A stretch of DNA of 64,000 nt. It comes from Ciconia boyciana. Its lineage: Eukaryota. Positions 2,101 through 32,450 of this stretch are shown here, piece by piece (the first letter of the stretch is position 1; every line of letters begins with the position of its first letter). Under the pieces are notes generated by a model that worked only from the letters and a program-made list of their open reading frames with translations, was not told the DNA's origin and made no database searches. The translations under genes and the position numbers were made by a program. The DNA is taken from NCBI RefSeq assembly GCF_034638445.1, contig NC_132969.1, forward strand, positions 255,423 through 319,422, written 5' to 3'.

Positions 2101-2154
2101 GCGTTCCTCCCCGCCCCAAACCCCCCATAACCCCGCGCCCCCTTCTCCCCCCAG

Positions 2155-2518
2155 ATCCTCTACAACCGCACCATGGTCCAACTGGGCATCTGCGCCTTCC
2201 GCGAGGGCCTCATCAAGGACGCCCACAACGCCCTCCTGGACATCCAGTCCTCGGGGCGCGCCAAGGAGCTGCTGGGGCAGGGCCTGCTGCTGCGCAGCCT
2301 GCAGGAGCGCAACGCGGAGCAGGAGAAGGTGGAGAAGCGGCGCCAGGTCCCCTTCCACATGCACGTCAACCTGGAGCTGCTGGAGTGCGTCTACCTGGTG
2401 GCGGCCATGCTGCTGGAGATCCCTTACATGGCGGCCCACGAGTTCGACGCCCGCCGCCGCATGATCAGCAAGCAGTTCCACCACCAGCTGCGCGTGGGCG
2501 AGAGGCAGCCGCTGCTCG
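2155..2518 (+). CDS. EIF3C: EIF3C internal coding exon (eIF3 subunit c)
   Basis: Acceptor ccccccag|ATC (AG 2153-2154). Translation [67 protein letters not shown](G) is near-identical to human eIF3c. Donor GT 2519-2520. Confidence 0.88.
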
Positions 2519-2589
2519 GTGCGGGGCAGGCCGTGGGTCGCGCCGAGATCTGCGCGGGGGGGCGGACCCTGCCGGGGGCGGGGGGCGGA

Positions 2590-4035
2590 CCCCTAAGCGG
2601 GGGGCGGACCCCTAAGGGGGTTTTTTCTGCGCCTCCCAAGTCGTTCTTCTGCTTCCTAAGTGGGGGGTTGCTGCCCCCTGAGTCTTTTCTTCTGCCCCCT
2701 AAGTCTTTTCTTGTGCCCTCTAAGTCTTTTCTTGTGCCTCCTAAGTGATTCTTCTGCCCCCTAAGTGATTCTTCTGACACCTAAGTCATTTCTTCTGCCC
2801 CGAATGATTCTTCTGACCCCTAAGTCTTTTCTTGTGCCCCCTAAGTCATTTCTTGTGCCCCCTAAGTCATTTCTTGTGCCCCCTAAGTCATTTCTTGTGC
2901 CCCCTAAGTGATTCTTCTGACACCTAAGTCATTTCTTCTGCCCCCTAAGTGATTCTTCTGACGCCTAAGTCATTTCTTCTGCCCCCTAAGTGATTCTTCT
3001 GCCCCCTAAGTCATTCTTCTGCCCCCTAAGTGATTCTTCTGCCCCCTAAGTGATTCTTCTGACACCTAAGTCATTTCTTCTGCCCCGAGTGATTCTTCTG
3101 ACCCCTAAGTCTTTTCTTGTGCCCCCTAAGTCTTTTCTTGTGCCCCCTAAGTGATTCTTCTGACACCTAAGTCATTTCTTCTGCCCCCTAAGTGATTCTT
3201 GTGCCCCCTAAGTCTTTTCTTGTGCCCCTAAGTGATTCTTCTGCCCCTAAGAGATTCTTCTGCCCCCTAAGTGATTCTTCTGCCCCTAAGATATTCTTCT
3301 GCCCCTAAGATATTCTTCTGCCCCCTAAGAGATTCTTCTGCCCCCTAAGTGATTCTTCTGACGCCTAAGTCATTTCTTCTGCCCCCTAAGTGATTCTTCT
3401 GCCCCCTAAGTGATTCTTCTGCCCCCTAAGCGGGGGGTCTGACCCCTAAGTGGGTTTTTCTGCCCCCCCGCAGTTGTTCTTCTGCCTCCTAAGTGGGGGT
3501 TTGCTGCCCCCTAAGTCATTTCTTTTGCTCCCTAAGTCATTTCTTCTGCCCCCTAAGTGATTCTTCTGCCCCCTAAGTGATTCTGACTCTTCTGCCCCTA
3601 AGTGATTCTGACTCTTCTGCCCCCTAAGTCATTTCTTCTGCCCCCTAAGAGATTCTTCTGCCCCCTAAGAGATTCTTCTGCCCCCTAAGTGATTTCTTCT
3701 GCCCCTAAGAGATTCTTCTGACCCCTAAGTGGGGGGGTCTGACCCCTAAGTGGGTTTTTTCTGCCCCCCCCCCCCCCCCCAGTCATTCTTCTGCCTCCTA
3801 AGTGTGGGTTTGCTGCCTCCTACGTAATTTTTGCTGCCCCCTAAGTGATTTCTTCTGCCCCCTAAGTCTTTTCTTCTGACCCCTAAGTGATTCTTCTGCC
3901 CCCTAAGTGATTCTTCTGCCCCCAAGTGATTCTTCTGATGCCTAAGTCATTTCTTCTGCCCCCTAAGAGATTCTTCTGCCCCCTAAGAGATTCTTCTGCC
4001 CCCTAAGTGATTCTTCTGCCCCCTAAGTGTTTTTT
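2590..4035. repeat. Minisatellite, ~19-20 bp unit ccccctaagtgattcttctg (EIF3C intron)
   Basis: ~70 tandem copies with minor variants (tcatttcttctg / agattcttctg). Confidence 0.85.
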
Positions 4036-4047
4036 TCCGCCCCACAG

Positions 4048-4207
4048 GACCGCCGGAATCCATGCGGGAACACGTGGTGGCGGCGTCCAAAGCGATGAAG
4101 ATGGGCGACTGGAGAACCTGCCACCGCTTCGTGGTCAATGAGAAGATGAACGGGAAGGTGTGGGACCTCTTCCCCGAGGCCAAGAAAGTCCGCGCCATGC
4201 TGGTCAG
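4048..4207 (+). CDS. EIF3C: EIF3C coding exon
   Basis: Acceptor cccacag (4041-4047). (G)[52 protein letters not shown](R) matches human eIF3c. Donor GT 4208-4209; the split codon AG|G is completed by the next exon. Confidence 0.88.
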
Positions 4208-4214
4208 GTCTGTG

Positions 4215-5460
4215 GGGTGGGGGCGCTGTGGGGCGGGGGCGCTGTGGGGCGGGGCCTGTTGTCTTGCATCCTTCAACCTCCATCTTGTGTCCTTCAACCT
4301 CCATCTTGTGTCTCCAACCTCCATCTTGTGTCTCCAACCTTCGTCCCGCGTCCTTCAACCTCCATCTTGTGTCTCCAACCTCCATCCCGCGTTCTTCAAC
4401 CTCCATCCCGCGTTCTTCAACCTCCATCTTGTGTCTCCAACCTCCGTCCCGCATCCTTCAACCTCCATCCCGCGTCCTCCAACCTCCATCTTGTGTCTCC
4501 AACCTCCATCTTGTGTCTCCAACCTTCGTCCCGCGTCCTTCAACCTCCATCTTGTGTCTTCAACCTCCATCCCGCGTTCTTCAACCTCCGTCCCGCATCC
4601 TTCAACCTCCATCTTGTGTCTCCAACCTCCATCTTGTGTCTCCAACCTCCATCCCGCGTTCTTCAACCTCCATCCCGCGTTCTTCAACCTCCATCCCGCA
4701 TCCTTCAACCTCCATCTTGTGTCTCCAACCTCCGTCCCGCGTCCTTCAACCTCCGTCCCGCGTCCTTCAACCTCCATCTTGTGTCTCCAATCTCCATCTT
4801 GTGTCTCCAACCTTCGTCCCGTGTCCTTCAACCTCCGTCCCACGTCCTTCAACCTCCGTCCCACGTCCTTCAACCTCCATCTTGTGTCTTCAACCTCCGT
4901 CCCACGTCCTTCAACCTCCATCTTGTGTCTTCAACCTCCGTCCCACGTCCTTCAACCTCCATCTTGTGTCTCCAACCTCCGTCCCGCGTCCTTCAACCTC
5001 CGTCCCGCGTCCTTCAACCTCCATCTTGTGTCTCCAACCTCCGTCCCGCGTCCTTCAACCTCCGTCCCGCGTCCTTCAACCTCCGTCCCGCGTCCTTCAA
5101 CCTCCATCTTGTGTCTCCAACCTCCATCTTGTGTCTCCAACCTCCGTCCCGCGTCCTTCAACCTCCGTCCCACGTCCTTCCATCTCCGTCCCGCGTCCTT
5201 CCATCTCCGTCCCGTGTCCTTCAACCTCCGTCCCGCGTCCTTCAACCTCCATCTTGTGTCTTCAACCTCCGTCCCGCGTCCTTCAACCTCCATCTTGTGT
5301 CTTCAACCTCCGTCCTGCGTCCTTCCATCTCCGTCCTGCGTCCTTCCATCTCCGTCCCGCGTCCTTCCATCTCCGTCCCGCGTCCTTCAACCTCCATCTT
5401 GCGTCTCCAAGCTCCATCTTGTGTCTTCCATCTCCATCTTGTGTCCTTCAACCTCCACCT
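4215..5460. repeat. Minisatellite, ~20-21 bp units tccttcaacctccatcttgtg / cctccgtcccgcg (EIF3C intron)
   Basis: ~60 tandem copies read directly. Confidence 0.85.
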
Positions 5461-5472
5461 CGTGTTCTCCAG

Positions 5473-5538
5473 GAAGATCCAAGAGGAGTCACTCCGCACG
5501 TATCTCTTCACCTACAGCAGCGTTTACGACTCCATCAG
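5473..5538 (+). CDS. EIF3C: EIF3C coding exon
   Basis: Acceptor ttctccag (AG 5471-5472). (R)[21 protein letters not shown](S) is identical to human. Donor GT 5539-5540. Confidence 0.88.
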
Positions 5539-5615
5539 GTGACGGGCGGGGCATGGGCGTGGTGTGGGTGGGGCGTTGGATGGGCGTGGCGTGGCTGACT
5601 CCTCCCCCTCGTTAG

Positions 5616-5703
5616 CATGGAGATCCTGGCGGACATGTTTGAGCTGGACCTGCCGACGGTTCACAGCATCATCAGCAAGATGATCATCAACGAGGAGCTG
5701 ATG
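5616..5703 (+). CDS. EIF3C: EIF3C coding exon
   Basis: Acceptor ctcgttag (5611-5615). (S)[29 protein letters not shown]. Donor GTGAGC at 5704. Confidence 0.88.
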
Positions 5704-5776
5704 GTGAGCCCGTGCCGTGGGGCGGCCGTGGGGCGGCCGTGGGGTGGAGCTTGACTTTGTCCCGCCCTTCTTCCAG

Positions 5777-5939
5777 GCGTCTCTTGACCAACCGACGCAG
5801 ACGGTGATGATGCATCGGACGGAACCGACGGCGCAGCAGAACCTGGCGCTCCAATTGGCCGAGAAGTTGGGCAACTTGGTGGAGAACAACGAGCGGGTCT
5901 TCGACCACAAACAAGGCTCCTACGGCGGCTACTTCCGAG
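5777..5939 (+). CDS. EIF3C: EIF3C coding exon
   Basis: Acceptor cttccag (5771-5776). [54 protein letters not shown](D). Donor GT 5940-5941. Confidence 0.88.
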
Positions 5940-6025
5940 GTCTGCCCCACATCCTGCCCCACATCCTGCCCCACACCCTGCCCCACACCCTGCCCACCCA
6001 CCTCACCCATCTCTCCGCCCCACAG

Positions 6026-6111
6026 ATCAAAAAGACGGCTACCGGAAAGGAGACGGCGGCTACTTACGCCGCGGTGGTTACCGTCAACAAGAGCGCGGTT
6101 CCAACTACTGA
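6026..6111 (+). CDS. EIF3C: EIF3C terminal coding exon with TGA stop
   Basis: Acceptor ccccacag (to 6025). (D)[27 protein letters not shown] with stop 6109-6111. AATAAA follows 44 nt downstream. Confidence 0.88.
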
Positions 6112-6154
6112 GCCCCACGGCGGCCCCTGCCCCATGGCGCTCCGCCCCACATAT

Positions 6155-6160
6155 AATAAA
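6155..6160 (+). terminator. EIF3C: Polyadenylation signal AATAAA of EIF3C
   Basis: Hexamer in atataataaagcaact, 44 nt after the stop codon. Confidence 0.7.
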
Positions 6161-6293
6161 GCAACTTGGCACCGATTCGCCTCGTTATGGGGAGCGTTGA
6201 CCCGTGTGGGGCCAGGTTAATGAGTGACGACGAAGCGGGTGGGGGGCGGGGGGAAGGAGGATTTAACGCCTGCCCCACGGCGAGCGCCGACCT

Positions 6294-6476
6294 TTGAGCG
6301 TCAGCCATGGGGCAGGAGCGGGGGGGGGTCGCCGTGGGCGCCCCACGGCGAAAGGAACCCCGTTAAATTTTGGGGAGGGGACGGCGTTTCGGTTGAAGAG
6401 TGGGCGGGAGCTGGTGCGGGCGCTGCTGGTGCTGCGGCTCTGCGCCTTCCCCCGCCTGGTCCGACACGCCGGCACG
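6294..6476 (+). CDS. PRODH2: PRODH2 (hydroxyproline dehydrogenase) first recognisable coding exon; start codon unresolved
   Basis: LNFGEGTAFRLKSGRELVRALLVLRLCAFPRLVRHAGTV aligns with human PRODH2 LSFDGGAFHLKGTGELTRALLVLRLCAWPPLVTHG. Donor GTGAGA at 6477. There is no in-frame ATG upstream; the nearby ATGs at 6220 and 6307 are out of frame. The exon lies only ~130 bp after the EIF3C poly(A) signal. Confidence 0.65.
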
Positions 6477-6558
6477 GTGAGAGAAAAACCCCCCCCACCC
6501 CACCCCACACCCTGCCCCACGGCGCCGTGGGGCAGAGTCTAACCGTTCTGCCCCATAG

Positions 6559-6752
6559 ATCTTAGAAGTCTCACGACGGGTTTTGGGGAGCCGGCTATGG
6601 GGCGGGCTGCTGCGAGCCACCTTCTACGGGCAGTTTGTGGGGGGCGAGACCCCCGCCGAGGTGGTGGCGGCGGCGGGGCGGTTGCGCGCCGTGGGGCTGC
6701 GCCCCATGTTGGCCGTCCCCACCGAGGAAGATGTGGGGCAGGAGAAAGACGG
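6559..6752 (+). CDS. PRODH2: PRODH2 coding exon
   Basis: Acceptor ccccatag (6551-6558). ILEVSRRVLGSRLWGGLLRATFYGQFVGGETPAEVVAAAGRLRAVGLRPMLAVPTEEDVGQEKDG matches human ASVYGQFVAGETAEEV...LRPLLAVPTEEE. Donor GTATGT at 6753. Confidence 0.8.
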
Positions 6753-6830
6753 GTATGTGGGGCTGGCTATGGGGTGGGGAGCGGGGGTTTAAGGCCTCCT
6801 GCCCTACTTCTCCCCCTATGTGTGGGGCAG

Positions 6831-6951
6831 GGAGGAGTGGTACGAAGCCAACCGGGGGGCGGCGCTGGAATGTGTGGGGCTGGCGGCCGCCACCGGCCCC
6901 CGGCCCATGATGCAGCTGAAGGTGACGGCCCTGATGAGCGCCCGCCTCTGC
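6831..6951 (+). CDS. PRODH2: PRODH2 coding exon
   Basis: Acceptor tgtggggcag. (G)EEWYEANRGAALECVGLAAATGPRPMMQLKVTALMSARLC matches human EAWYEGNLGAMLRCVDL...LMQLKVTALTSTRLC. Donor GTGAGT at 6952. Confidence 0.8.
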
Positions 6952-7057
6952 GTGAGTTTGGGGGGCGTAACCCCCCCCCCCCAAAAAAAATAAAGGGGGA
7001 GGAAATTGGGGGGCACCGCCCCTCTGCCCCCCAACCGCGACCCACATCTCCCCATAG

Positions 7058-7135
7058 GAGACGCTGTCACGACGGCTGGCGGAGCCGGTGGCCGAGGTGA
7101 CGCTGGAGCGGGTGGCAGCGGTGATGGGGGGCGAG
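7058..7135 (+). CDS. PRODH2: PRODH2 coding exon
   Basis: Acceptor ccccatag. ETLSRRLAEPVAEVTLERVAAVMGGE. Donor GTAAAC at 7136. Confidence 0.7.
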
Positions 7136-7279
7136 GTAAACCCCCCCCGCCCCCCAAATCTTCCACCCCTCCCCCACATTAGCCCCTCCCCCCCTTTAGC
7201 CCCTCCCCCAATCCTGGAAAGCCCCGAAATTCGGTGAAAATCGGTTAAATCGGGGGAAACTACCCCAAACCGGCCGCAG

Positions 7280-7360
7280 GTCGCCACCTTCGCCTGCCTG
7301 ACGCCGGAGGAGAACCGGCACTTGGGGGTCTCGCTACGGCGCCTGGACGACGTAGCCGGG
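7280..7360 (+). CDS. PRODH2: PRODH2 coding exon
   Basis: Acceptor cggccgcag. VATFACLTPEENRHLGVSLRRLDDVAG matches human LQVSCLNAEQNQHLRASLSRLHRVAQ. Donor GTGAGA at 7361. Confidence 0.78.
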
Positions 7361-7464
7361 GTGAGACGTGGGGCAGAGATGTGGGGCTGGGGGAAAGAAG
7401 GAGGCGGAGCTAGGCGATATTGGGGGCGGGGCCCTCAACCAACGGGGATCCCCCGTACGCCTAG

Positions 7465-7611
7465 TACGCGGCGACGCGGGGGGTGCGGGTGCTGGTGGAC
7501 GCGGAGCAGAGCTACGTCAACCCGGCGTTGAGTTTGACGACTTTGGCCTTGATGGCGCGGCACAACCGGGCTTCGCCGTGGGTCTGGAACACCTACCAAG
7601 CTTATCTCCAG
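7465..7611 (+). CDS. PRODH2: PRODH2 coding exon (FAD-binding proline dehydrogenase domain)
   Basis: YAATRGVRVLVDAEQSYVNPALSLTTLALMARHNRASPWVWNTYQAYLQ matches human YARAQHVRLLVDAEYTSLNPALSLL...GPWVWNTYQACLK. Donor GTAACT at 7612. Confidence 0.85.
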
Positions 7612-7692
7612 GTAACTTATGGGGCAGAGTTATGGGGCAGAGCCCCACGGCGCCACGCTAAAAGCTTTACCCCCCCCCCGCCCCCGCAACAG

Positions 7693-7859
7693 GACGGGAA
7701 GAAACGGTTGGCGGGGGACGCGGCGACGGCGCGGCGGCGGGGGGTGTGTTTCGGGGTGAAGTTGGTGCGAGGGGCGTACCTGGAATTGGAACGGCGCCGG
7801 GCGAGGGAAGGGGGGGACCCCGATCCGGTGCACCCCACTTTAGATGACACCCACCGCAG
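7693..7859 (+). CDS. PRODH2: PRODH2 coding exon
   Basis: Acceptor ccgcaacag. DGKKRLAGDAATARRRGVCFGVKLVRGAYLELERRRAREGGDPDPVHPTLDDTHR matches human AGLAFGVKLVRGAYLDKERAVA...DPTQPDYEATSQSY. Donor GTAACC at 7860. Confidence 0.85.
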
Positions 7860-7931
7860 GTAACCTGGGGGTTTTGGGGGGGGGGGAGGGGCGTCGAGCC
7901 CTATAGCGAGCCCCCCAACTTTTCCCGGCAG

Positions 7932-8042
7932 CTACGGCGAGTGCCTGGAGCTGGCGCTGGCGCTGGCGGCGCAGGACAGGGAGGACGTGGGGGTGATGGT
8001 GGCCACCCATAACGAGCTCTCGGTGCTCCACGCCACCCAAAG
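7932..8042 (+). CDS. PRODH2: PRODH2 coding exon
   Basis: Acceptor tttcccggcag. (S)YGECLELALALAAQDREDVGVMVATHNELSVLHATQ(R) matches human SRCLELMLTHVARHGPMCHLMVASHNEESVRQATKR. Donor GTGGGT at 8043. Confidence 0.85.
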
Positions 8043-8129
8043 GTGGGTGTCACCCCCTTAAAATTTTAGGGGACCCCCCCCCCCAAAAAAACCCCAACAA
8101 CTTAGCCCTGAACCCCCGTTTCGCGGCAG

Positions 8130-8218
8130 AATGGAGGAGCTGGGCATCCCCCGGCAAGGAGGCGGCGTCTGCTTCGGGCAGCTGCTGGGGATGTGCGACC
8201 ACGTCTCCCTGGCGTTGG
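8130..8218 (+). CDS. PRODH2: PRODH2 coding exon
   Basis: Acceptor tcgcggcag. (R)MEELGIPRQGGGVCFGQLLGMCDHVSLAL(G) is almost identical to human MWELGIPLDGTVCFGQLLGMCDHVSLALG. Donor GTAGGG at 8219. Confidence 0.88.
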
Positions 8219-8313
8219 GTAGGGTGACCCCGCCTCTCCCCGCCATCTTTTGGGGTGCCCTCCCCCCCAAAAAAAAAAATTCACCCCCCCCGTCCCGTCC
8301 CGGTTTGGGGTAG

Positions 8314-8483
8314 GCGAAGCCGGTTACGCCGTCTACAAGTCGGTGCCGTACGGGGGAGCGGAGGCGACGCTGCCGTACCTGGCGCGGCGGGCGCAGGAGA
8401 ATCAGGGGGTGCTGCAGGGCGCTCGGCGGGAGAGACGGCTCCTCGCCCGTGAGCTGCGGAGACGCCTCCTGCGGAGAGCCTGA
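8314..8483 (+). CDS. PRODH2: PRODH2 terminal coding exon with TGA stop
   Basis: Acceptor ggtttggggtag. (G)EAGYAVYKSVPYGGAEATLPYLARRAQENQGVLQGARRERRLLARELRRRLLRRA* matches human QAGYVVYKSIPYGSLEEVIPYLIRRAQENRSVLQGARREQELLSQELWRRLL. Stop at 8481-8483. Confidence 0.88.
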
Positions 8484-16650: not shown

Positions 16651-16726
16651 GGTGTCCCCCCCCCCGCCCCCGCCGCCGCCGGCCGTGCCGTCACCGCGCT
16701 TTGGCCTCTCCCCCCTCCCCGCCCAG

Positions 16727-16790
16727 GCCCGACCACCTCAACAGCCACGTGCGGCAGGTCCACTCCACGGAGCGCCCCTTCAAGTGCGAG
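16727..16790 (+). CDS. MAZ: MAZ zinc-finger coding exon
   Basis: Acceptor ccgcccag. (R)PDHLNSHVRQVHSTERPFKCE is identical to human. Donor GTAGGT at 16791. Confidence 0.9.
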
Positions 16791-16871
16791 GTAGGTCCCC
16801 CTCCCGGCCCCCTCCCCTCCCACCTCTCCCCCGCCCCACGGCGCCCGCCCCACGGCGCCTTCCCGCCCTAG

Positions 16872-17043
16872 ACCTGCGAGGCCGCCTTCGCCACCAAGGA
16901 CCGGCTGCGGGCGCACACGGTGCGGCACGAGGAGAAGGTGCCGTGCCACGTCTGCGGGAAGATGCTGAGCGCCGCCTACATCTCCGACCACATGAAGGTC
17001 CACAGCCAGGGCCCCAACCACGTCTGCGAGCTCTGCAACAAAG
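16872..17043 (+). CDS. MAZ: MAZ zinc-finger coding exon
   Basis: Acceptor ccgccctag. TCEAAFATKDRLRAHTVRHEEKVPCHVCGKMLSAAYISDHMKVHSQGPNHVCELCNK(G) matches human. Donor GTAGGG at 17044. Confidence 0.9.
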
Positions 17044-17049
17044 GTAGGG

Positions 17050-19560
17050 GCGCGCCGTGGGGCGGGGTGTGGGGCGGGGTGTGGGGCGCGCCGTGGGGCG
17101 GGGTGTGGGGCGGGCCGTGGGGTGTGGGGTTTGGGGAGCGATGGTTATGGGGAGGGGTTGGGTTTGGCCGGCTGTTGTTTGCGTAGGGGTTGCGGGGCGG
17201 TTGTGGGGTGCGCCGTGGGGCGGGGGTGGGGGTGGGGTTTGGGGGTGGCGGTTCAGGGGAGGGGTTGGTTTGCCCGGCTGTTGTTGTGTAGGGATTGGGG
17301 TGCTGTGGGGCGGCTGTGGGGCAGGTTGTAGGGCAGCTGTGGGGCAGGGCATGGGGCAGGCCGTGGGGCATGGGGTTTGGGGGGTGGCGGTTCAGGGGAG
17401 GGGTTGGTTTGCCCGGCTGTTGTTCTGTAGGGATTGGGGTGCTGTGGGGCAGCTGTGGGGTGGCCGTGGGGCAGGCTGTGGGGCAGTTGTGGGGCAGGCC
17501 ATGGGGCAGGCCGTGGGGTGTGGGGTTTGGGGGTGTCAGTTTGGGGGAAGGGTTGGTTGTCCTGGCTCTGTGGGGCAGAGAGGCACCGTCCCACGTAGGG
17601 CTCATGTGGGGCGCTGATCTGTGGGGCACAGGCTGTATGGGGCGCTGATCTGTGGGGCACAGGCTCTATGGGGTGCTGATCTATGGGGCAGAGGCTGCGT
17701 GGGGCACAGGGTCGCTGTGCCAGGTAGGGCTGCTGTTGCTGTGGGGCACCAGCCCCATGGGGTACAGGCTCTATGGGACACTGGCTCTATGGGGCACTGT
17801 CCCACAGCTCCCGGGCTCTATGGGGCACTACCCCATGGCTCCCAGGCTCTATGGGGCGCTGCCCCACAGTTCCTAGGCTCTATAGGGCACGACCCCACAG
17901 CTCCCTTCTGCTATGGGACACTGCCCCATAGCTCATGGGCTCTATGGGGCACTATTGCCATGGCTCCCAGGCTCTATGGGGCACCGCCCCCCAGCTCCCA
18001 GGCTCTATGGGGCACCGCCCCACGGCTCCCAGGCTCTATGGGGCACCGCCCCGCAGCTCCCAGGCTCTATGGGGCACCACCCCCCACCTCCCAGGCTCTA
18101 TGGGGCACTGTCCCATGGCTCCCAGGCTCTATGGGGCACCACCCCCCAGCTCCCAGGCTCTATGGGGCACCGCCCCGCAGCTCCCAGGCTCTATGGGGCA
18201 CCGCCCCCCACCTCCCTGCAGCTATGGGGCACCGCCCCCCAGCTCCCAGGCTCTATGGGGCGCTGCCCCCCACCTCCCAGTCCCTCTAGCTCCCCCCCCA
18301 CCACCCCGCAGCCCCCGCCCCCAAGCGCCGTGGGTCTGACGCCGCTTCGTCCCCAGGCTTCACCACGGCGGCGTACCTGCGGGTGCACGCGGTGAAGGAC
18401 CACGGGGTGGCGGCCCCCCCGCCCCCCGACGCCTCCTCTGCAAACTCTGCGGGGTTCACTGCAAGACCCCCGCCCAGCTCAGCGGCCACCTCCAGACCCA
18501 CGGCGCAGCCCCCCCCGCCGAGGGGCCCGCTCCCCAGGGGGCTCCGCCGCTCCGCTGACGCGCCCACAGGCAAGGCCCGGCGGGGGGACGGGGGACGGGG
18601 GGGCTGGGGAGGGGGATGGAGGGGGGACGGGGGGAGGGAGGGGGGGGAGGGACTTGGGGGGCAGCCCCATAGAGCCTGGGAGTTCTGCCACGTAGAGCCT
18701 GGGAGTTCTGCCCCGTGGATCGCGGGAGTTCTGCCCCATAGAGCCTGGGAATCCTGCCCCATGGATCATGGGAGTTCTGCCCCATGGATCGTGGGAGTTC
18801 TGCCCCATAGATCACAGGATTTCTGCCCCATAGAGCCTGGGAGTTCTGCCCCATAGAGCCTGGGAGTCCTGCCCTGTAGAGCTTGGGAGTTCTGCCCCAT
18901 AGATCACAGGAGTTGTGTCCCATAGAGCCTGAGAGTTCTGCCCCATAGATCATGGGAGTTCTGCCCCATAGAGCCTAGGAGTTCTGCTCCATAGATCATG
19001 GGAGTTCTGCCCCATGGATCGCAGTTCTGCCCCACAGAGCCGGGGAGCCCCGCCCCATAGATCATGGGAGTTCTGCCCCATAGAGCCTGGGAACTCTGCC
19101 CCATAGATCGCAGGAGTTCTGTCCCATAGATTATGGGAGTTCTACCCTGTAGATAGAACCTGGGAGCTCTGCCCCATAGCGTGCACTGGTGGGTGCTTGG
19201 GGGGCAGCCCCATAGAGCCTGGGAGCCCTGCCCCATAGATCGTGGGAGTTCTGCCCCATAGCATGGGAATGGGGGTGTTTGGGGGGCAGCCCCATAGAGC
19301 CTGGGAGTCCTGCCCCATAGATCACAGGAGTTCTGCCCCAGAGAGCCTGGGATTTCTGCCCCGTAGTGCGGGGATGGGGATGCTTGGGGGGCAGCTCCAT
19401 AGAGCCAGGGATGGGGGGCAGCCCCATAGATCCTGGGAGCCCTGCCCCATAGCGTGGGGCGGGAGGGGACAGCACCCGGGGGGGAGGGGGGGGCTCATCT
19501 TGCCCCAGAGCCGGGGGATGGGGGTCACTTGGGGGGCAGCCCCATAGATCCGGGCAGTCC
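17050..19560. repeat. Minisatellite arrays in MAZ intron 4 (units ~24-30 bp: ctatggggcaccgccccacagctcccaggct; ccatagatcatgggagttctgcc)
   Basis: Read directly. Several sub-arrays carry the recurring motifs ccccatag / ctatgggg. Confidence 0.8.
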
Positions 19561-22106: not shown

Positions 22107-22181
22107 CTGGGGGGAGGGGAGGGCGTGAGAGGGGGGGAGGGGAGGGGTGGGGGGGGGGGGTGGGGGGTGGGGGAGGGGCAC

Positions 22182-22252
22182 CTCTTGTCCCGCGAGACCT
22201 TCAGCAGCTTGCGCTGGGCCCGGCGCAGCTCCTCCTGGAAGCACTCCTGCTC
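22182..22252 (-). CDS. INO80E: INO80E coding exon
   Basis: Minus strand: acceptor ccccccag, then [23 protein letters not shown] matching human [23 protein letters not shown]. Donor GTGCCC. Confidence 0.85.
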
Positions 22253-22329
22253 CTGGGGGGAGGGAGAGAACGGGGGGGAGGGGCACGGGGACACGCCCAC
22301 CCGCGCACGGCATTGTGGGTAGAGGCCTA

Positions 22330-23646: not shown

Positions 23647-23948
23647 TGGGGCGGGAAAGGGTGGGAGGGAGGGGGAGAGGAAGAGGAAGAGGAAGGCGGG
23701 GAAAATGGGGAAAGCGGGGAGAAACGGGAGCGGGAAGGGGAAAAGGGCGGGGAAACGGGGGAGGGGCAAAGGGGAGGGGGAGGAGGAGGAAGAGGAAGGG
23801 GAGGAGGAGGAAGAGGAAGGGGAGGAGGAGGAAGAGGTGCCTCAGCAAAATGGGGTGAAAATGGCCAAAAACAGGAGCGGGCACCCAAAGGCCCTGAAAA
23901 TTGGGGGGGAAAGGTGCAAAATTGAGAGCGAGGAAGAGGAGGAAGAGA

Positions 23949-23979
<31 letters not shown>

Positions 23980-24586
23980 AGAGGAAGAGGAGGAGGAAGA
24001 GAAGCTGCCCCACAAAAACGGGGTGAAACCGGGCAAAAACAGGAGCGAGAACCAAAAGACCCCGAAAATTGGGGGGAAAAGGTGCAAAATTGAGAGCGAG
24101 GAAGAGGAGGAAGAGGAAGAGGAAGAGGAAGAGGAAGAGGAGGAGAAAGAGGAAGAGGAGGAGAAAGAGGAAGAGGAGGAGGAAGAGAAGGAAAAACAGA
24201 AGCTGCCCCAGAAAAATGGGGTGAAAACGGGCAAAAACGGGAGCGACAAACAAAAAAAGCCGCTGAAAACTGGGGGGAAAAGGGGCAAAATTGGGAGTGA
24301 GGAGGAAGAGGAAGAAGACGAGGAAGAGGAGAAGCTGTCCCAGAAAAATGGGGTGAAAACAGGCAAAAATGGGAGTGAGAACCGAAAAAAGCCCCTGAAA
24401 ATCGGGGGGAAACGGGGCAAAATGGAGAGTGGGGAGGAAGAGGAAGAGGAAGAGGAGGAGGAAAAGGAAGAGGAAGAACAAAAGCAGCCACGCCGGAAAA
24501 ATGGGGTGAAAACGGGCAAAAACGGGGGCGAGAATCAAAAAAAGCCCCTGAAAATTGGGGGGGAAAGCGGCAAAATGGAGAGTGAG

Positions 24587-24648
<62 letters not shown>

Positions 24649-25165
24649 AGACGAGAAAGAGAAGAAGCTGCCCCGGAAAAATGAGGTGAAAAAGGTCAAA
24701 AAGAGGAGCAAGGCTGAGAACGACAAAAAGCCCGCGAAAAATGGGGGGGAAAAGGGCAAAACGGACAGTGAGGAAGAGGAGGAGGAAGAGGAAAAGGAGG
24801 AAGAGGAGGAGGAAGAGCGGCCCGTGAAAAATGGGGTGAAAAAGGGCAAAACCAGGAGCGAGCATCAAAAAAAGCCCGTGAAAAATGGGGCAGAAAAGGG
24901 CAAAATGGAGAGTGAGGAAGAGGAAGAGGAGAAAGAGAAAGAGGAAGAAGAGGAGGAAGAGGAAGAAGAGGAGGAAAAGCCGCTCCTAAAATCCGGGGGG
25001 CAAAAGGCCCCCGCAAGGCCGGAGCCTGTGAAAAACGGGGCGAAAAGCGGCAAAACGGGGAGCAAGGAGGAAGAGGAGGAAGAGGCGGGGAGGAAGAGGC
25101 AGAGGCGGGAGTCTTCCTCCTCCTCTTCCTCGCTAGAGGAGGAAGAGCGGGCCCCCCCCCGCAAG
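23647..25165 (+). CDS. HIRIP3: HIRIP3 large acidic coding exon with ~8 internal repeats (EEEE..KLPQKNGVKTGKNGSENQKKPLKIGGKRGKMESEEEE)
   Basis: A 1.5-kb stop-free frame rich in Glu/Lys/Ser with KNGVK motifs, like the human HIRIP3 central region (PAKNGVAAE..). It ends ..SSSSSLEEEERAPPRK at the GTAACC donor (25166). The acceptor at 23645-23646 (ccccggaag|t) is tentative. Confidence 0.7.
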
Positions 25166-25179
25166 GTAACCGGTGCTCC

Positions 25180-25990
25180 TGGGGACGGGAAGGGGGTGGG
25201 GGATTTGGGGGTCTTTAATATTTGGGGGGGTCGGGGGGCATTTGGGGCGGGGGGATTTGGGGGGTCTTTAAGGCTGGGGGGCTCAGAGGGGGATTTGGGG
25301 GGTCTTTAATATTTGGGGGGCAGGGGGGGGATTTGGGGGCTCTTTAAGCCCGGGGGCTCAGAGGGGGATTTGGGGGCTGGGTGGGGCTTTTGGGGTCTGG
25401 GGGAGAATTGGGGGATCTTTAATATTTGGGGGCTCTGGAGGGGGCATTTGGGGGCTGGGGGATTTGGGGGCCCTGGGGGGTCTTTGACACCTGGGGGGCT
25501 TGGGAGGAGGATTTGGGGGGCTGGGGTGGATTTGGGGGGTCTTTAATATCGGGGGGCTCTGGAGGGGGCATTTGGGGGCTGGGGGGGGGATTTGGGGGTC
25601 TTTGACCCCTGGGGACTCAGGAGGGGATTTGGGGGGTTGGGGGGCTTTTGGTGTCTGGGGGGATTTGGGGGGTCTTTAATATTTGGGGGGCTCTGGAGGG
25701 GTTTATGGGGTCGGGGGGGATTTGGAGGGTCTTTAATATTGGGGGGCTGAGGAGGGGATTTGGGGGCTGGGGGGATTTGGTGTCTGGGGGAAATTTGGGG
25801 GGGTCTTTAATATTTGGGGAGGCTCAGGAGGGGCCATTTTGGGGCTGGGGGGACATTTGGTGCCTGGAGGGGGCGCTTTGGGGGTGCCTGGGCGTTATTT
25901 GGGATCCTGGGGGGATTTGGGGGTGCAGGGGGATTTGGGGGTGCCTGTGGGGGGCATTTACCATCTCGGGGGCTGCGGAGGGCACTCACA
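25180..25990. repeat. Minisatellite (~40 bp: gggggatttgggggtctttaatatttgggggctctggaggg) in a HIRIP3 intron
   Basis: Read directly. Confidence 0.8.
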
Positions 25991-26026
25991 CCCCCTCCCC
26001 CACGTTTTGGGGGAGCCCCCCCCCAG

Positions 26027-26191
26027 GTTTCGGGGCGCCGGGGGGGGGGCCCCCCCCCCGTGCGGCGCCTGAAGCGCTACATCCGGGCGTGCGGGGCGCG
26101 CCCCAACTACAAGAAGCTTTTGGGGGGCTGCCGCAGCCTGCGGGAGAGAGTTGGGGTGCTGCGGGGGAGCTGCAGGCCCTCGGCCTCACCG
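26027..26191 (+). CDS. HIRIP3: HIRIP3 coding exon (conserved C-terminal domain, part 1); it contains an apparent 1-bp gap
   Basis: Acceptor cccccccccag (AG 26025-26026). VSGRRGGGPPPVRRLKRYIRACGARPNYKKLLGGCRSLRERVGVLRG matches human AVMRLKRYIRACGAHRNYKKLLGSCCSHKERLSILRAE. The frame then shifts to ..GELQALGLT(G) (human AELEALGMKG). Donor G|GTACTG near 26192. Confidence 0.7.
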
Positions 26192-26199
26192 GTACTGGG

Positions 26200-27560
26200 G
26201 GGCCGGGGGGGCGGTTTGGGGTGCGGGAGGGGTTTGGGGGGCTACAGGGGGTTTGGGGGTGCGGGAGGGGTTTGGGGGGGCTACAGGGGGTTTGGGGTGC
26301 GGGAGGGGTTTGGGGGCGCTACAGGGGGTTTGGGGGGCTACAGGGGGTTTGGGGTGTGGGAGGGGTTTGGGGGGCTACAGGGGGTTTGGGGGTGTGGGAG
26401 GGGTTTGGGGGGCTACAGGGGGTTTGGGGTGTGGGAGGGGTTTGGGGGGCTACAGGGGGTTTGGGGGTGCGGGAGGGGTTTGGGGGCTACAGAGGGGTTT
26501 GGGGGTGTGGGAGGGGTTTGGGGGGCTACAGGGGGTTTGGGGTGCGGGAGGGGTTTGAGGGGGATACAGGGGGTTTGGGGGGCTACAGGGGGTTTGGGGT
26601 GCAGGAGGGGTTTGGGGGGCTACAGGGGGTTTGGGGGCATCAGAGGGGGTTTTGGGGTGCGGGAGCGGGTTTGGGGGATACAGGGGGGCTTGGGGGTCCC
26701 AGAGGGGGATTTGGGGTGCAGGGGGCTACGGGGGGTTTGGGGGGCTATGGGGGTTTGGGGGCATCAGAGGGGGTTTTGGGGTGCGGGAGGGGTTTGGTGG
26801 GCTACAGGGGGTTTGGGGGTGCGGGAGGGGGTTTGGGGGGCAGGGGGGTTTGGGGGGCTACAGGGGGTTTTGGGGTGCAGGAGGGGGTTTGGGGGGCTAC
26901 AGGGGGTTTGGGGGCATCAGAGGGGTTTTGGGGTGCGGGAGCGGGTTTGGGGGATACAGGGGGTTTGGGGAGGGGGCATCAGAGGGGGTTTTGGGGTGCG
27001 GGAGCGGGTTTGGGGGATACAGGGGGTTTGGGGGGCTACAGGGGGTTTGGGGGCATCAGAGGGGGTTTTGGGGTGCGGGAGCGGGTTTGGGGGATACAGG
27101 GGGGCTTGGGGGTCCCAGAGGGGGATTTGGGGTGCAGGGGGGGCTACGGGGGTGGGAGAGAGGAATTGGGGGGGGGGGGGGCATTTTGGGGGGCAGAGGG
27201 GCTCAGGAAGGGGTTTTGGGGGGCTGGGGGCGATTTGGGGGTGCAGGGGTTATTCTGGGGAGCAGGAGGGGCACAAAATGGGGCATTTGGGGGCCATTTT
27301 GGGGGTGCAGGGGTTATTTTGGGGAGCAGGGGTATTTTGGGGTCCAGGGGGACATTTTGGGGTCCGGGGGGCATTTTGGGGTGCAGGGCATATTTTGGGG
27401 AGCATGGGTATTTTGGGGTCCGGGGGGCCCTTTTGGCGCTCGGGGTGGGGCATTTTGGGGCTCAGACCGGGCATTTTGGGGCTCAGGGCAGCCTCGGGAA
27501 GGGGGTTTTGAGGGCTGGGGGTGATTTGGGGTGCGGGGGTGGTTTTGGGGGCCCCTGACT
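26200..27560. repeat. Minisatellite (~31 bp: ggggtttggggggctacagggggtttggggtgcgggagg) in a HIRIP3 intron
   Basis: Read directly; ~40 copies. Confidence 0.85.
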
Positions 27561-27579: not shown

Positions 27580-27670
27580 GCCCCCTCCCTGGCTCGCTGC
27601 CGCCGCCTGAAACGCCGCCGCGAGGAAGCGGCCGAGCTGGCGGCGCTGGACGTTGCCAACATCATCCCCG
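27580..27670 (+). CDS. HIRIP3: HIRIP3 coding exon
   Basis: Acceptor ccccatccccag. APSLARCRRLKRRREEAAELAALDVANIIP(G) matches human TPSLGKCRALKEQREEAAEVASLDVANIISG. Donor GTAACA at 27671. Confidence 0.85.
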
Positions 27671-27752: not shown

Positions 27753-27877
27753 GCCGAGCCCGCAGACGCAACGGCTGGAGCCCCCAAATCCCCCGCGAGG
27801 AAACGGGGGCCCCCCTTCCTCCCGTCGACTGGTCGCGCCTTCGGGGCGTCATCAGCTCCGACGGCGAGAGCGATTAA
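27753..27877 (+). CDS. HIRIP3: HIRIP3 terminal coding exon with TAA stop
   Basis: Acceptor ttattccctcag. (G)[40 protein letters not shown] matches human GRPRRRTAWNPLGEAAPPGEL...PPDWSHMRGIISSDGESN*. Stop at 27875-27877, followed by an A15 tract and ATTAAA. Confidence 0.88.
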
Positions 27878-28169
27878 CCCCCCCCAAAAAAAAAAAAAAA
27901 TTTAAAAATTAAACTATATTCATTCCAAAGAGATTTTTTGGGGGTGTTTTCACGTTCTTTTGGGGGTGCTGTAAAAATTTGGGGGGGGTCAATATTTACG
28001 CTGACGGAGGAAAAAACCCGGGGGGCGTTTTGGGGGGGGTCTTCTCCTTCCAGCTGGAAAAGATCTCGCCCCGTCCGGAGAATTTGTTCTTCTAATTTCT
28101 TGTGCCGTTTCATATCCGATAAAACTTTATCCAGGCGAGCTTCCCGCTTCTGCCCGCGCGTCGGGGGGC
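27874..28169 (-). CDS. PAGR1: PAGR1 terminal coding exon; as written the ORF stops at 27874-27876 and overlaps the HIRIP3 stop, but the conserved C-terminus is read in another frame with its stop at 27989-27991
   Basis: Minus strand: acceptor aaatccggcag, then (G)[45 protein letters not shown].. matching human [44 protein letters not shown]. The +2 frame reads ..[10 protein letters not shown] (human ..LFPRQRKY*). The as-written frame runs through the poly-T tract (..[10 protein letters not shown]). Confidence 0.7.
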
Positions 28170-28290
28170 CTGCCGGATTTATCGGGGGGCTAGCGAATAG
28201 CGGGGTCCCCCCTTTTATTTAATTTAAAAAAAAAAAAAAAAAGAAAAAGAAAAGAAAAGGATGGAGGCGGAGGGATGGGGGCGCGCTTAC

Positions 28291-28373
28291 CCGGCGTTCG
28301 CCGCCGATCGATGAGGGAATTTTTGGGGGTGACGGGTTCGTCGTCGAAGTCGAACTCGGTGGGGACGGGCGGC
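28291..28373 (-). CDS. PAGR1: PAGR1 coding exon 2
   Basis: Minus strand: acceptor ttttccccttccag, then (K)[27 protein letters not shown](G). Human is [28 protein letters not shown]. Donor GTAAGC. Confidence 0.88.
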
Positions 28374-28379
28374 CTGGAA

Positions 28380-28560
28380 GGGGAAAAAGCAAATAAAAAT
28401 AAAAATAAATTCTGTAATAAAAGCAAAATCTTCTAATAAAAGCAAAATCCTATAATAAAAACCAAATCTTCTAATAAAAACAAAATCTTCTAATAAAAAC
28501 AAAATCTTCTAATAAAACCAAAATCCTATAATAAAACCAAAATCCTATAATAAAACCAAA
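28380..28560. repeat. AT-rich ~20-bp tandem repeat (aaaatcttctaataaaaacaaa)
   Basis: Read directly; at the 3' edge of PAGR1 intron 1 (minus orientation). Confidence 0.85.
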
Positions 28561-30125
28561 ATCTTCTAATAACAATAATATCGTACATTATCATGTTATT
28601 GTTTGTATTATTATATGCATTACATATGTATAATAATATTAAAATATAATATGATAATATAGTAAATAATATTTAATATTACATCATATTACATGATATA
28701 ATATTAAACTATATTATACAATAATACTCTATATTATATAATCACATTTTATATATTATATAATAATATGTAACATAATATTATATTATATATATTTAAA
28801 TATATAACATCATAATATAATGTATTATATATATAATATGTATTTTATAATATATAACATATAATAATACATTAGTATATATTAACACCTAATAACATAT
28901 ATTAATATGTAATATATATTTTTATATATAATACATCATATATGTATATTTAATATATTATATATATACTACATAACAAAACAATAATGTTATCATAGTA
29001 TAATACTATTTTTATGTATTATAAATTAGTAATAGTATCGTAATTATTAATCGTATCATATTATTATGATATTATGATAATCATACGGTGTTATTAATTG
29101 TATGACACAGTATAATACTATTTTTAATGTATTATAAATTATTAATAGTATCGTAATTATTAATTGTATCATATTATTATAATATTATGATAATCATAGG
29201 GTGTTATTAATCATGACATAGTATAATAGTAATTTTTATACATTATAAATTATTAATAGTATCGTAATTATTAATTGTATCATATTATTATTATATTATG
29301 ATAATCATAGGGTGTTATTAATCGTATGACAGAGTATAATACTATTTTTTATATATTATAAATTATTAATAGTATCGTAATTATTAATCATATCATATTA
29401 TTATAATATGATAATCATAGGGTGTTATTAATCGTATGACACAGTACAATACTATTTTGTATGTATTATAAATTATTAATAGTATTGTAATTATTAATCA
29501 TATCATATTATGATATTATAATCACACGGAGTTATTAATCGTATGACATAATATAATACTATTTTTTATGTATTATAAATTATTAATAGTATTGTAATTA
29601 TTAATTGTATCATATTATTATGCTATTATGATAATCATAGGGTGTTATTAATCGTATGTCATAGTATAATACTACATTTTAGGTATTATAGATTATTAAT
29701 AGTATTGTAATTATTAATCGTATCATATTATTATGATATTATGATAATCACATGCTGTTATTAATCGTATGACATAGTATAATACTATTTTGTATGTATT
29801 ATAAATTATTAATAGTATTGTAATTATTAATCGTATCATATTATTATGCTATTATGATAATCATACCGTGTTATTAATCGTATGTCATAGTATGATACTA
29901 CATTTTATGTATTATAAATTATTAATAGTATTGTAATTATTAATCGTATCATATTATTATGCTATTATGATAATCATACGGTGTTATTAATTGTATGTCA
30001 TAGTATGATACTACATTTTATGTATTATAAATAATTAATAGTATCGTAATTATTAATCGTATCATATTATTATGATATTATAATCACACGGTCTTATTAA
30101 TCGTATGACATCATACAACACCACG
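28560..30125. repeat. AT-rich satellite, ~118-bp unit (..tattataaattattaatagtatcgtaattattaatcgtatcatattattatgatattatgataatcatagggtgttattaatcgtatgacacagtataatactatttt..), ~13 copies inside PAGR1 intron 1
   Basis: Read directly; estimated ~80% A+T inside a window that is otherwise >65% G+C. Confidence 0.9.
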
Positions 30126-30208: not shown

Positions 30209-30576
30209 TTCTCCTCCTCTTCCTCCTCGCTTTCGGGCTGCCCGGCGGAGCGAGGTTCCTCCTCGCTGTCGGGTTCGGGGGTCGGCGCGCGCCGAGGGAG
30301 AGGAACGTGGCGGAGAGGAAGGCTCCCGGTTTCGGCGATGAGTTCGTAAAGTCGTCGGATATCGGGGGGCGGCGGTAACCAACCGTCGGGGGGTTCCCCT
30401 TCTTCTTCGTCGCTCCGAGGAACCCCCCAATCTTCTTCCTCTTCTTCCTCGAGCGTCGCCGTTTCTTCCGCCGCTGGGTTTTCTCCTTCGAGCGGCGGCG
30501 GTTCCGCGGCGTCGGCGACGGCGAGGGATTGCAGCCCCGACGTCACCTCCGCCGCTTCCTCGCTCGCCGGCTCCAT
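30209..30576 (-). CDS. PAGR1: PAGR1 coding exon 1 (acidic N-terminal region)
   Basis: Minus-strand ATG in gcggccATGg is the reverse complement of 30574-30576. [88 protein letters not shown] matches human PAGR1 (EVTSGLQALAVED...DWCVPCSDEE..EIQRLYELLAAHGTLEL..LPRRPPTPEAQSEEE). Donor AA|GTAAGA is the reverse complement of 30203-30208. Confidence 0.85.
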
Positions 30577-30599: not shown

Positions 30600-32450
30600 G
30601 GGAGGGGTCAGGCGGCCCCCAAAAAAGCTGCGATTCACCCCAAAAGGGGATGGGAGGAACCGGCGGGCCAGGCCTGAGGTGATCCCGGTGCCCGTAGGGC
30701 CGCCATTTTGAGGCCTGAGGTGGTCCCATCACCCCTGGGGCCGCCATTTTGAGCCCTGAGGTGATCCTGGGGCCGCCATTTTGCGCCCTGAGGTGATCCC
30801 ATCACCCCTGGGGCCACCATGTTGAGCCCTGAGGTGGTCCCGTCACCCCTGGGGCCACCATTTGGAGCCCTGAGGTAGTCCTGGGGACGCCATTTTGCAC
30901 CCTGAGGTGATCCCATCACCCCTGGGGCCACCATGTTGAGGCCTGAGGTGGTCCCGTCACCCCTGGGGCCACCATTTGGAGCCCTGAGGTAGTCCTGGGG
31001 ACGCCATTTTGCGCCCTGAGGTGATCCCATCACCCCTGGGGCCACCATGTTGAGGCCTGAGGTGGTCCCGTCACCCCTGGGGCCACCATTTGGAGCCCTG
31101 AGGTAGTCCTGGGGACGCCATTTTGCGCCCTGAGGTGATCCCGTCACCCCTGGGGCCACCATGTTAAGCCCTGAGGTGGTCCCGTCACCCCTGGGGCCGC
31201 CATTTTGAGCCCTGAGGTGATCCTGGGGCCGCCATTTTGCGCCCTGAGGTGATCCCATCACCCCTGGGGCCACCATGTTGAGCCCTGAGGTGGTCCCGTC
31301 ACCCCTGGGGCCACCATTTGTAGTCCTGGGGACGCCATTTTGAGGCGTGAGGTGATCCCATCACCCCTGGGGCCACCATGTTGAGGCCTGAGGTGGTCCC
31401 GTCACCCCTGGGGCCACCATTTGGAGCCCTGAGGTAGTCCTGGGGACGCCATTTTGCGCCCTGAGGTGATCCCGTCACCCCTGGGGCCACCATGTTAAGC
31501 CCTGAGGTGGTCCCGTCACCCCTGGGGCCACCATTTGGAGCCCTGAGGTAGTCCTGGGGACGCCATTTTGCGCCCTGAGGTGATCCCGTCACCCCTGGGG
31601 CCACCATGTTAAGCCCTGAGGTGGTCCCGTCACCCCTGGGGCCGCCATTTGGAGCCCTGAGGTAGTCCTGGGGACGCCATTTTGAGGCGTGAGGTGATCC
31701 CATCACCCCTGGGGCCACCATTTGGAGCCCTGAGGTGATCCTGGGGCCGCCATTTTGCGCCCTGAGGTGATCCCATCACCCCTGGGGCCGCCATGTTGAG
31801 CCCTGAGGTGGTCCCGTCACCCCTGGGGCCGCCATTTGGAGCCCTGAGGTGGTCCCGTCACCCCTGGGGCCGCCATTTGGAGCCCTGAGGTGGTCCCATC
31901 ACTCCTGGGGCCGCCATTTTGACCCCTGAGGTGGTCCTGGGACGGCTATTTTGAGGCCTGAGGTGGTCCCATCACCCCTGGGGCCACCATGTCAAGCCCT
32001 GAGGTGGCCCTGGGGCCATCATTTTGGGCCCTGAGGCAATCCCATCACTCCTGGGGCCACCATTTAGAGCCCTGAGGTAACTTCACACCCCTGGGGCCAC
32101 CATTTTGAGCTCTGAGGTGGTCCCATTACCTCTGGGGCCAGCATGTTAAGCCCTGAGGTAGTCCTGGGGCCACCATTTTGAGCCCTGAGGTGATCCCATC
32201 ACCCCTGGGGCCACCATTTTGAGCCTCGAGGCCATCCCATCACCTCAGAGGCCGCCATGTCGAAGCCTGAGGTGATCCCGTCCCCCCTGGCACCGCCATG
32301 TCGAGCCCTGAGGTAACCTCACACCCCTGTGGCCGCCATTTTGAACCCCGAGGCGACCCTCACACCCGCAGGGCCGCCATCTTGAGGCCTGAGGTAACTC
32401 CAGCCCCCTCACACCCCTGCAGCCGCCATGGCGAGCCCTGAGGCGACCCC
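30600..32450. repeat. Minisatellite, ~41-42 bp unit (gccctgaggtggtcccgtcacccctggggccaccatgttgag) with a ~120-bp higher-order structure, immediately upstream of the PAGR1 ATG
   Basis: ~45 tandem copies. Each unit carries a Kozak-like gccaccatg on the plus strand. Confidence 0.85.

Follow-up and report, generated by a model that had tools for sequence, protein, structure and literature searches.

Genes at the locus

The window, by which is meant the whole 64-kb stretch of stork (Ciconia boyciana) DNA that was analyzed, holds the 3' ends of two convergent genes, PAGR1 on the minus strand and HIRIP3 on the plus strand (Table 1). The three PAGR1 exons were spliced by hand and, as written, give a 248-residue product that is 100% identical to NCBI XP_072705251.1, the C. 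boyciana PAXIP1-associated glutamate-rich protein 1 isoform X2. Isoform X1 differs from X2 solely by an upstream acceptor. Since the spliced coding sequence is that of XP_072705251.1, the long C-terminal tail of the as-written PAGR1 is already in the public annotation (RefSeq). The PAGR1 product matches the Pfam PAXIP1_C domain with 150.3 bits against a cut-off of 27, over residues 49-180 and the full profile (1-132), and a protein search returned 426 matches, the best of which are PAGR1 from birds and turtles.

The plus-strand gene is assigned to HIRIP3 because of a borderline match to the Pfam CHZ domain (E=6e-5; 22.8 bits, where the cut-off is 23.3), a match to the rice Chz1 chain 6m2m_M (E=0.0023) and conserved synteny with INO80E. 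The INO80E gene of the alligator locus (PF24237) is divergent from, or head to head with, a HIRIP3-like gene, and an INO80E-like exon is found on the minus strand of the stork window at 22181-22255. The name also rests on resemblance to the human sequence (..LKRYIRACG..NYKKLL.. and ..DWS.(L/M)RG(V/I)ISSDG(E/D)S(D/N) before the stop). The large HIRIP3 exon at 23847-24976 is an acidic and lysine-rich coding region with in-frame tandem duplications of about 130-480 nt, including about seven copies of units of the (E)n-KLPQKNGVKTGKNGSENQKKPLKIGGKRGK type; these duplications suggest a lineage-specific expansion of the protein.

Within positions 1-58000 of the window, the plus strand also carries the C-terminal exons of EIF3C (2131-6200), a proline-dehydrogenase-like exon (7465-7860) and MAZ (about 16690-18560). 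After MAZ, the gene order is the INO80E exon (minus), HIRIP3 (plus), PAGR1 (minus) and SEZ6L2 (minus). PAGR1 and HIRIP3 are immediate neighbors in both stork and alligator; in human 16p11.2, several genes lie between the two.

Table 1. Features of the PAGR1-HIRIP3 locus in the stork window, and stop-to-stop spacers in other species
Feature	Position	Strand	Remarks
HIRIP3 penultimate coding exon	27580-27670	+	APSLARCRRLKRRREEAAELAALDVANIIP-G, CHZ-type motif; AG/GT boundaries, tblastn of the translated exon
HIRIP3 last coding exon	27753-27877	+	Stop TAA 27875-27877; sequence read
TTAA common to the HIRIP3 stop and the as-written PAGR1 stop	27874-27877	both	
C8 and A15 tract adjoining the HIRIP3 stop	27878-27900	+	T15 G8 on the minus strand
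ATTAAA, candidate HIRIP3 poly(A) signal	27908-27913	+	30 nt past the stop; hexamer scan
AATGAA/AATATA, candidate PAGR1 poly(A) signal	27915-27924	-	Only PAGR1-sense poly(A)-like hexamers in the spacer past the probable true stop
PAGR1 exon 1, coding part	30209-30576	-	ATG 30576-30574; Pfam PAXIP1_C 150 bits
PAGR1 exon 2	28291-28373	-	
PAGR1 exon 3, coding part, probable true extent	27989-28169	-	Acceptor cag/G at 28170/28169
C8 run, site of the frame break	28032-28039	-	G8 on the plus strand; relatives have 12 nt encoding PPPP
Conserved 13-residue PAGR1 C-terminus and probable true stop	27989-28030	-	TGA, complement of 27989-27991
Out-of-frame PAGR1 read-through tail	27874-28031	-	QNAPRVFSS...FFFFGGG and stop; judged artefactual
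Open reading frame starting MKRHKK	27874-28113	-	79 aa; stop is the complement of 27874-27876
PAGR1-HIRIP3 spacer, stork			111 nt, from the probable true PAGR1 stop
PAGR1-HIRIP3 spacer, shoebill			78 nt
PAGR1-HIRIP3 spacer, ostrich			108 nt
PAGR1-HIRIP3 spacer, Ural owl			54 nt
PAGR1-HIRIP3 spacer, cuckoo			44 nt
PAGR1-HIRIP3 spacer, penguin			1071 nt, repeat-expanded
PAGR1-HIRIP3 spacer, alligator			Roughly 0.8 kb, from annotated gene ends

The apparent overlap of the coding regions

As annotated, the two coding regions run into each other. An earlier note on this DNA had described the stop codons of HIRIP3 and of the as-written PAGR1 as overlapping on a TTAA, and both stops are indeed located within that tetranucleotide. 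It had also described the PAGR1 tail as crossing the HIRIP3 poly-A tract; the tail does pass through the C8/A15 tract that follows the HIRIP3 stop, such that the T15 G8 on the minus strand encodes its last residues (FFFFFGGG). The sharing of TTAA by the two stops is incidental, because a gene that ends in GAY-TAA always gives TAA or TAG on the opposite strand; the GAT-TAA of HIRIP3 gives TAA. In penguin, shoebill, ostrich, owl and cuckoo, too, PAGR1 is followed closely by the HIRIP3 C-terminus in antisense orientation.

A C-terminus of the form ..LF(L/P)RQRKY, which is conserved among PAGR1 proteins from amphibian-grade matches to mammals, is present in the stork only in a frame shifted by one base from that of the preceding part of exon 3. 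The earlier note had placed it in a different frame from that of the annotated tail, and it was found there, on the minus strand, with its TGA at the complement of 27989-27991. The tail itself could not be linked to other proteins. A Pfam search of the as-written PAGR1 gave no match in the tail, and a search of a 5.8-billion-protein database with the last exon and tail as query found no homologue that covers the tail and no further sequence from Ciconia. When both NCBI isoforms, the 79-residue open reading frame and the proteins and fragments repaired to C9 or C12 were looked up as exact sequences, no independent stork entry was found.

The exon-3 frame and the conserved C-terminal frame are one base apart, with only GA-C8-AAAA between them. 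Addition of one C to the C8 run results in a 210-residue protein that ends in ..RQRKY and a stop, with a DPPP-type junction. Addition of four C, as in the relatives, results in a 211-residue protein with the same ending and a DPPPP-type junction. Two homopolymer deletions had been proposed earlier, one in the C8 run and one in a C6/T6 segment. The first part of that proposal stands, and the second is set aside: one site is involved, given that the frames are only one base apart. Addition of one C to both C8 and C6 leads to the wrong frame (..PPGFFPPSA and stop), and repair at C6 alone or at T6 alone restores the frame but generates DPPQNAPPGFF.. or another sequence, neither of which corresponds to the KRPPGFF of the relatives. 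The coordinates of the runs also require amendment. The C8 run, given as 28031-28038, is a G8 on the plus strand at 28032-28039, and the C6/T6 segment, given as 28012-28025, consists on the plus strand of a G6 at 28020-28025 and an A6 at 28011-28016.

Comparison with other birds places the break at the same run. A DPPPPKRP-type ending is encoded in PAGR1 of five relatives: penguin, shoebill, frigatebird, albatross and seriema. The poly-C tract is 12 nt long and encodes PPPP in the DNA of penguin, shoebill and frigatebird (CCCCCCCCCCCG, CCTCCCCCGCCC and TCCCCCCCCTCC). Alignment of stork DNA with that of these three species leaves a 4-nt stork gap exactly in the poly-C tract, and the C6/T6 segment downstream shows no length difference between stork and relatives. 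The 13-residue C-terminal peptide is identical in the DNA of penguin, shoebill and frigatebird and in the proteins of albatross and seriema. The identity of thirteen residues plus a stop with those of other birds is not due to chance. The region of the tail, by comparison, can be aligned with the relatives only via non-triplet indels.

The pattern of substitution in the 42 nt past the run points to the conserved frame as well. Thirteen columns are variable among the four species, and 10 of the 13 are third positions; the remaining three are two synonymous first positions (CGA/AGA and CTT/TTA) and one difference between stops (TGA/TAA). Codon differences between stork and each of the three relatives, counted in the conserved frame as synonymous/non-synonymous, are 7/0, 8/0 and 7/0, whereas the same differences read in the two other frames are almost all non-synonymous. 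The bases unique to stork in the 42 nt fall at third positions in four cases of four. Since all of the stork differences are synonymous, the conserved PAGR1 frame has been under selection along the stork lineage. A long-standing real frameshift would not leave such a synonymous-only pattern.

Homopolymer error as the probable cause

The overlap of the coding regions at TTAA is thus read as artefactual, produced by a wrong length of the homopolymer at 28032-28039, with a probability of about 0.85. That the overlap is probably artefactual had been suggested earlier, and the suggestion gains support from the in silico repair, from the DNA of the relatives and from the synonymous-only changes. The break in the PAGR1 frame falls within a poly-C tract coding for a few consecutive prolines: the assembly gives C8 where an intact PAGR1 requires C9 (PPP) or C12 (PPPP, the state of the relatives). 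The most likely cause would be under-calling of the homopolymer in a long-read (probably Nanopore) assembly that was left unfixed by short-read polishing. The DNA around PAGR1 is roughly 65-70% GC. Because the C/A-rich spacer offers no stop in the shifted frame, the gene predictor would have continued for 55 codons, and the first stop that it met would be the reverse complement of the T-TA in the GAT-TAA of HIRIP3. The last 14 codons of PAGR1 would thereby have been thrown out of frame. The real protein would end at 27989-27991, and therefore the two coding regions would lie 111 nt apart with no overlap.

A similar break is found 10 kb away in the same window. An alternative 3' exon of MAZ (18350-18560, plus strand) switches frame at a C7gC6 tract (18414-18427) that is one base short, with ..FTTAAYLRVHAVKDHGVAAPPPPDASS.. 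in one frame and ..PPAPRRLLCKLCGVHCKTPAQLSGHLQTH.. followed by a stop in another. If one C is added, the exon encodes two consecutive C2H2 fingers, with a complete extra CX2CX12HX3H finger (..FTTAAYLRVHAVKDHGVAAPPAPRRLLCKLCGVHCKTPAQLSGHLQTH..). Pfam finds four zf-C2H2 stretches in the repaired MAZ versus three in the unrepaired one, and zf-met on the restored finger at 108-127 (E=8e-6) after repair only. A second under-called homopolymer in this assembly is the probable cause. The exons of EIF3C in the same window, which are without long runs, have no frame breaks when judged against human EIF3C; therefore, errors are not rampant outside long homopolymers. Because the breaks in PAGR1 and MAZ both lie in C-runs and the EIF3C exons are intact, the assembly appears to fall short specifically in C/G homopolymers. 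Comparison of the window at the translated level with the loci of ostrich, alligator, owl and cuckoo found no further frame-split exon among the exons of PAGR1, HIRIP3, INO80E and SEZ6L2 (E<1e-6), which is a weak negative, and a protein search with a SEZ6L2 sushi exon as control gave no match.

Systematic shortening of long homopolymers is a classic Nanopore error. Homopolymer indel errors in long-read (especially Nanopore) assemblies are also said, by Watson and Warr in Nat Biotechnol in 2019, to frameshift predicted proteins. The stork case resembles such errors in that the break lies inside a C/G run of at least eight bases, the assembled run is too short for an intact gene, one added base restores the conserved open reading frame and a second case lies 10 kb away. 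It differs in that it is known from assembled sequence alone and in that the shortfall relative to the other birds is 4 nt rather than 1 nt, so that at least part of the length difference could be real. The absence of a low-quality flag on the NCBI model for PAGR1 is a further counterpoint. In keeping with a homopolymer error, the sole published chromosome-level stork assembly, which may not be the source of the window, was generated with ONT PromethION reads, NextDenovo, NextPolish (run with ONT reads) and 3D-DNA (PMC11494145). It was also corrected with short reads, which counts against a homopolymer error (PMC11494145).

The same pattern recurs in the Ural owl (Strix uralensis GCA_047716275.1, CM106060.1, locus L005 6310-6445), for which this is one of two published assemblies, HiFi or ONT. 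The homologous tract is C20 A5 (6320-6344) and is one base short. This puts the conserved 13-residue PAGR1 C-terminus out of frame by one base; the PAGR1 model (P0130) ends in ..EGDAPPPPPPKNAPPFFFFVNASIKTHPKRKKNGLKSAFLGFF and a TAG that overlaps the HIRIP3 TAA in TTAG. A technical cause would predict that a second long-read assembly also fails at a long homopolymer, but the recurrence leaves a small probability for recoding too.

Alternative readings

The C8 run might instead be real. A recent frameshift, whether fixed, segregating or present on one haplotype, would then replace the last 13-14 residues with 55 unrelated ones, such that the coding sequence ends in the HIRIP3 stop. This seems unlikely, though it is the better placed of the alternatives. 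Long homopolymers slip in vivo also, and the Oriental stork has passed through a population bottleneck (PMC11494145). The residues that would be lost lie outside PAXIP1_C, so the change might be tolerated, and the unflagged NCBI model keeps the tail. In opposition, the downstream 14 codons and stop are intact and have changed in stork at synonymous positions only; therefore, any real frameshift would have to be very young. A C-terminus kept from amphibian-grade matches to mammals would have to be newly lost. The second one-base shortfall, in the C-run of MAZ, and the like pattern in the owl assembly suggest a technical cause.

Alternatively, the genome could truly be out of frame, with C8 in stork and C20 in Ural owl both real, and the conserved C-terminus made only via recoding, that is by -1 ribosomal frameshifting or by slippage of the RNA polymerase. 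If true, this would yield two forms of PAGR1, one of which terminates antisense to the HIRIP3 stop codon. In formal terms GAC CCC CCC C has the X XXY YYZ pattern, as C CCC CCC fits the heptamer of programmed -1 frameshift sites, and a -1 slip gives exactly the conserved C-terminus. In the Ural owl, which belongs to another order and comes from an independent assembly, the tract is also one base short and the tail also ends on the HIRIP3 stop. Unlike programmed sites, however, the PAGR1 tract has no stimulatory structure downstream: the minimum free energy of -11.3 kcal/mol (z -1.05) is matched by 28 of 200 shuffles. Moreover, the DNA of penguin, shoebill, frigatebird and ostrich is in frame, and the normal ending is found in the PAGR1 proteins reported for albatross, kagu and sparrowhawk. 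With the relatives in frame, the shifted arrangement does not represent a conserved design. The alternative tails in stork and owl are low in complexity and not related to each other, and sequencing error itself predicts recurrence at long homopolymers. Recoding is thus regarded as very improbable.

That the long tail is a functional, stork-specific extension, with TTAA as a selected overlap of two coding regions, is hardly credible: in its favor are only the 55-codon open frame and its presence in RefSeq, whereas the tail is encoded by 3'-UTR-like low-complexity DNA, has neither homologue nor domain, requires the non-triplet indels described above and has a frame that is open over about 51 codons in about 5% of composition-matched shuffles, and the TTAA is not conserved, given that HIRIP3 ends in TGA in penguin, ostrich and cuckoo.

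Convergent arrangement and 3' ends

Independently of the probable homopolymer error, the convergent arrangement is real and old. PAGR1 and HIRIP3 are convergent neighbors in penguin, shoebill, ostrich, owl, cuckoo and alligator as well as in stork. The order SEZ6L2 > PAGR1 > < HIRIP3 < > INO80E is found in alligator and, in part, in ostrich.

The ATTAAA past the HIRIP3 stop is the only HIRIP3-sense poly(A) hexamer in the stork spacer by hexamer scan, with a T6G5TGTTTT stretch after it at 27934-27950. At the place homologous to the stork AATGAA/AATATA, the frigatebird has GAATAAATATAATTTAATTT, with a canonical AATAAA. The T15 G8 on the minus strand could act as a U/GU-rich downstream element for PAGR1. 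The best poly(A) hexamer of each gene in the stork spacer lies beyond that of the other, back to back. Because the spacer is too short for two separate UTRs and each signal lies beyond the other, the 3' ends of the PAGR1 and HIRIP3 mRNAs probably overlap at the level of the UTRs, by a few tens of nucleotides as predicted from the positions of the hexamers. The earlier note had offered a real 3' overlap and a homopolymer error as an either/or; the two are compatible, and with a spacer of 111 nt an overlap of the UTRs is very probable. The pair resembles cis natural antisense pairs with 3'-UTR overlap in that the genes are convergent with spacers of 44-111 nt in five birds. It differs in that the overlap is deduced from hexamers and concerns the UTRs only, not the coding sequences as the annotation implies.

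The cuckoo (Cuculus canorus GCA_017976375.1) has a PAGR1 model (P0010, ..FLRQRRSAPSRLVFLRAPVSLC..) that spans 7.5 kb (locus L007, 3001-10566), so that all of the antisense HIRIP3 gene (4387-8371) lies within it. The normal PAGR1 end, ..KRPPGIFLRQRKY and a stop, is present at 4301-4342; therefore, the model leaves out the last codons by a splice that reaches across HIRIP3. This model hints at read-through transcription of PAGR1 antisense to HIRIP3.

Consequences for annotation

The outcome is ordinary and the biological remainder modest, and the practical result is a correction of annotation. The main use is in curation, as the stork RefSeq models for PAGR1 (XP_072705250.1 and XP_072705251.1) would carry a spurious C-terminus and the Ural owl RefSeq model is apparently affected too, with spurious C-termini of about 33-55 residues. 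The spurious tail makes two coding regions look as if they overlapped. Poly-proline tracts give long C-runs in GC-rich genes of bird microchromosomes, and such runs are hot spots for miscalls that automatic annotation does not flag. PAGR1 and HIRIP3 form a tail-to-tail pair that is conserved in archosaurs, with a spacer of 44-111 nt in most birds examined, and the pair is a clean candidate for studies of 3'-UTR overlap.

Tandem repeats in the window

Of the 64-kb window, 24.7 kb (39%) or more is taken up by tandem arrays with a TRF score of at least 700, and these high-score arrays lie nearly all within introns of EIF3C, MAZ, HIRIP3, PAGR1 and SEZ6L2. Intron 1 of PAGR1 contains an AT-rich island of tandem arrays (28398-30111), with a GC content of about 23% within a region of 65-70% GC. 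The island consists of a 19-nt unit in nine copies (28398-28572), degenerate (ATATT)n/(TA)n sequence (28629-28968) and a 113-nt unit in ten copies with 90% identity (28994-30111). These arrays form most of the 1.8-kb intron; the whole of PAGR1 is about 0.9 kb in ostrich, penguin and alligator. A 114-nt (3 x ~41-nt) tandem repeat in about 13 copies occupies 30673-32395. It begins about 100 nt upstream of the PAGR1 start codon and therefore fills the expected place of the PAGR1 promoter.

The HIRIP3 intron at 25198-27552 holds a 2.3-kb G-rich minisatellite with units of 19, 38 and 57 nt, of the GGGGGTTTGGGGG..CAG type. It has a GC skew of about +0.5 on the HIRIP3 sense strand, long spurious open reading frames and a G-quadruplex-like composition. 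The exons of SEZ6L2 are spread over about 24 kb (33244-57360, minus strand); the alligator gene spans 5.3 kb.
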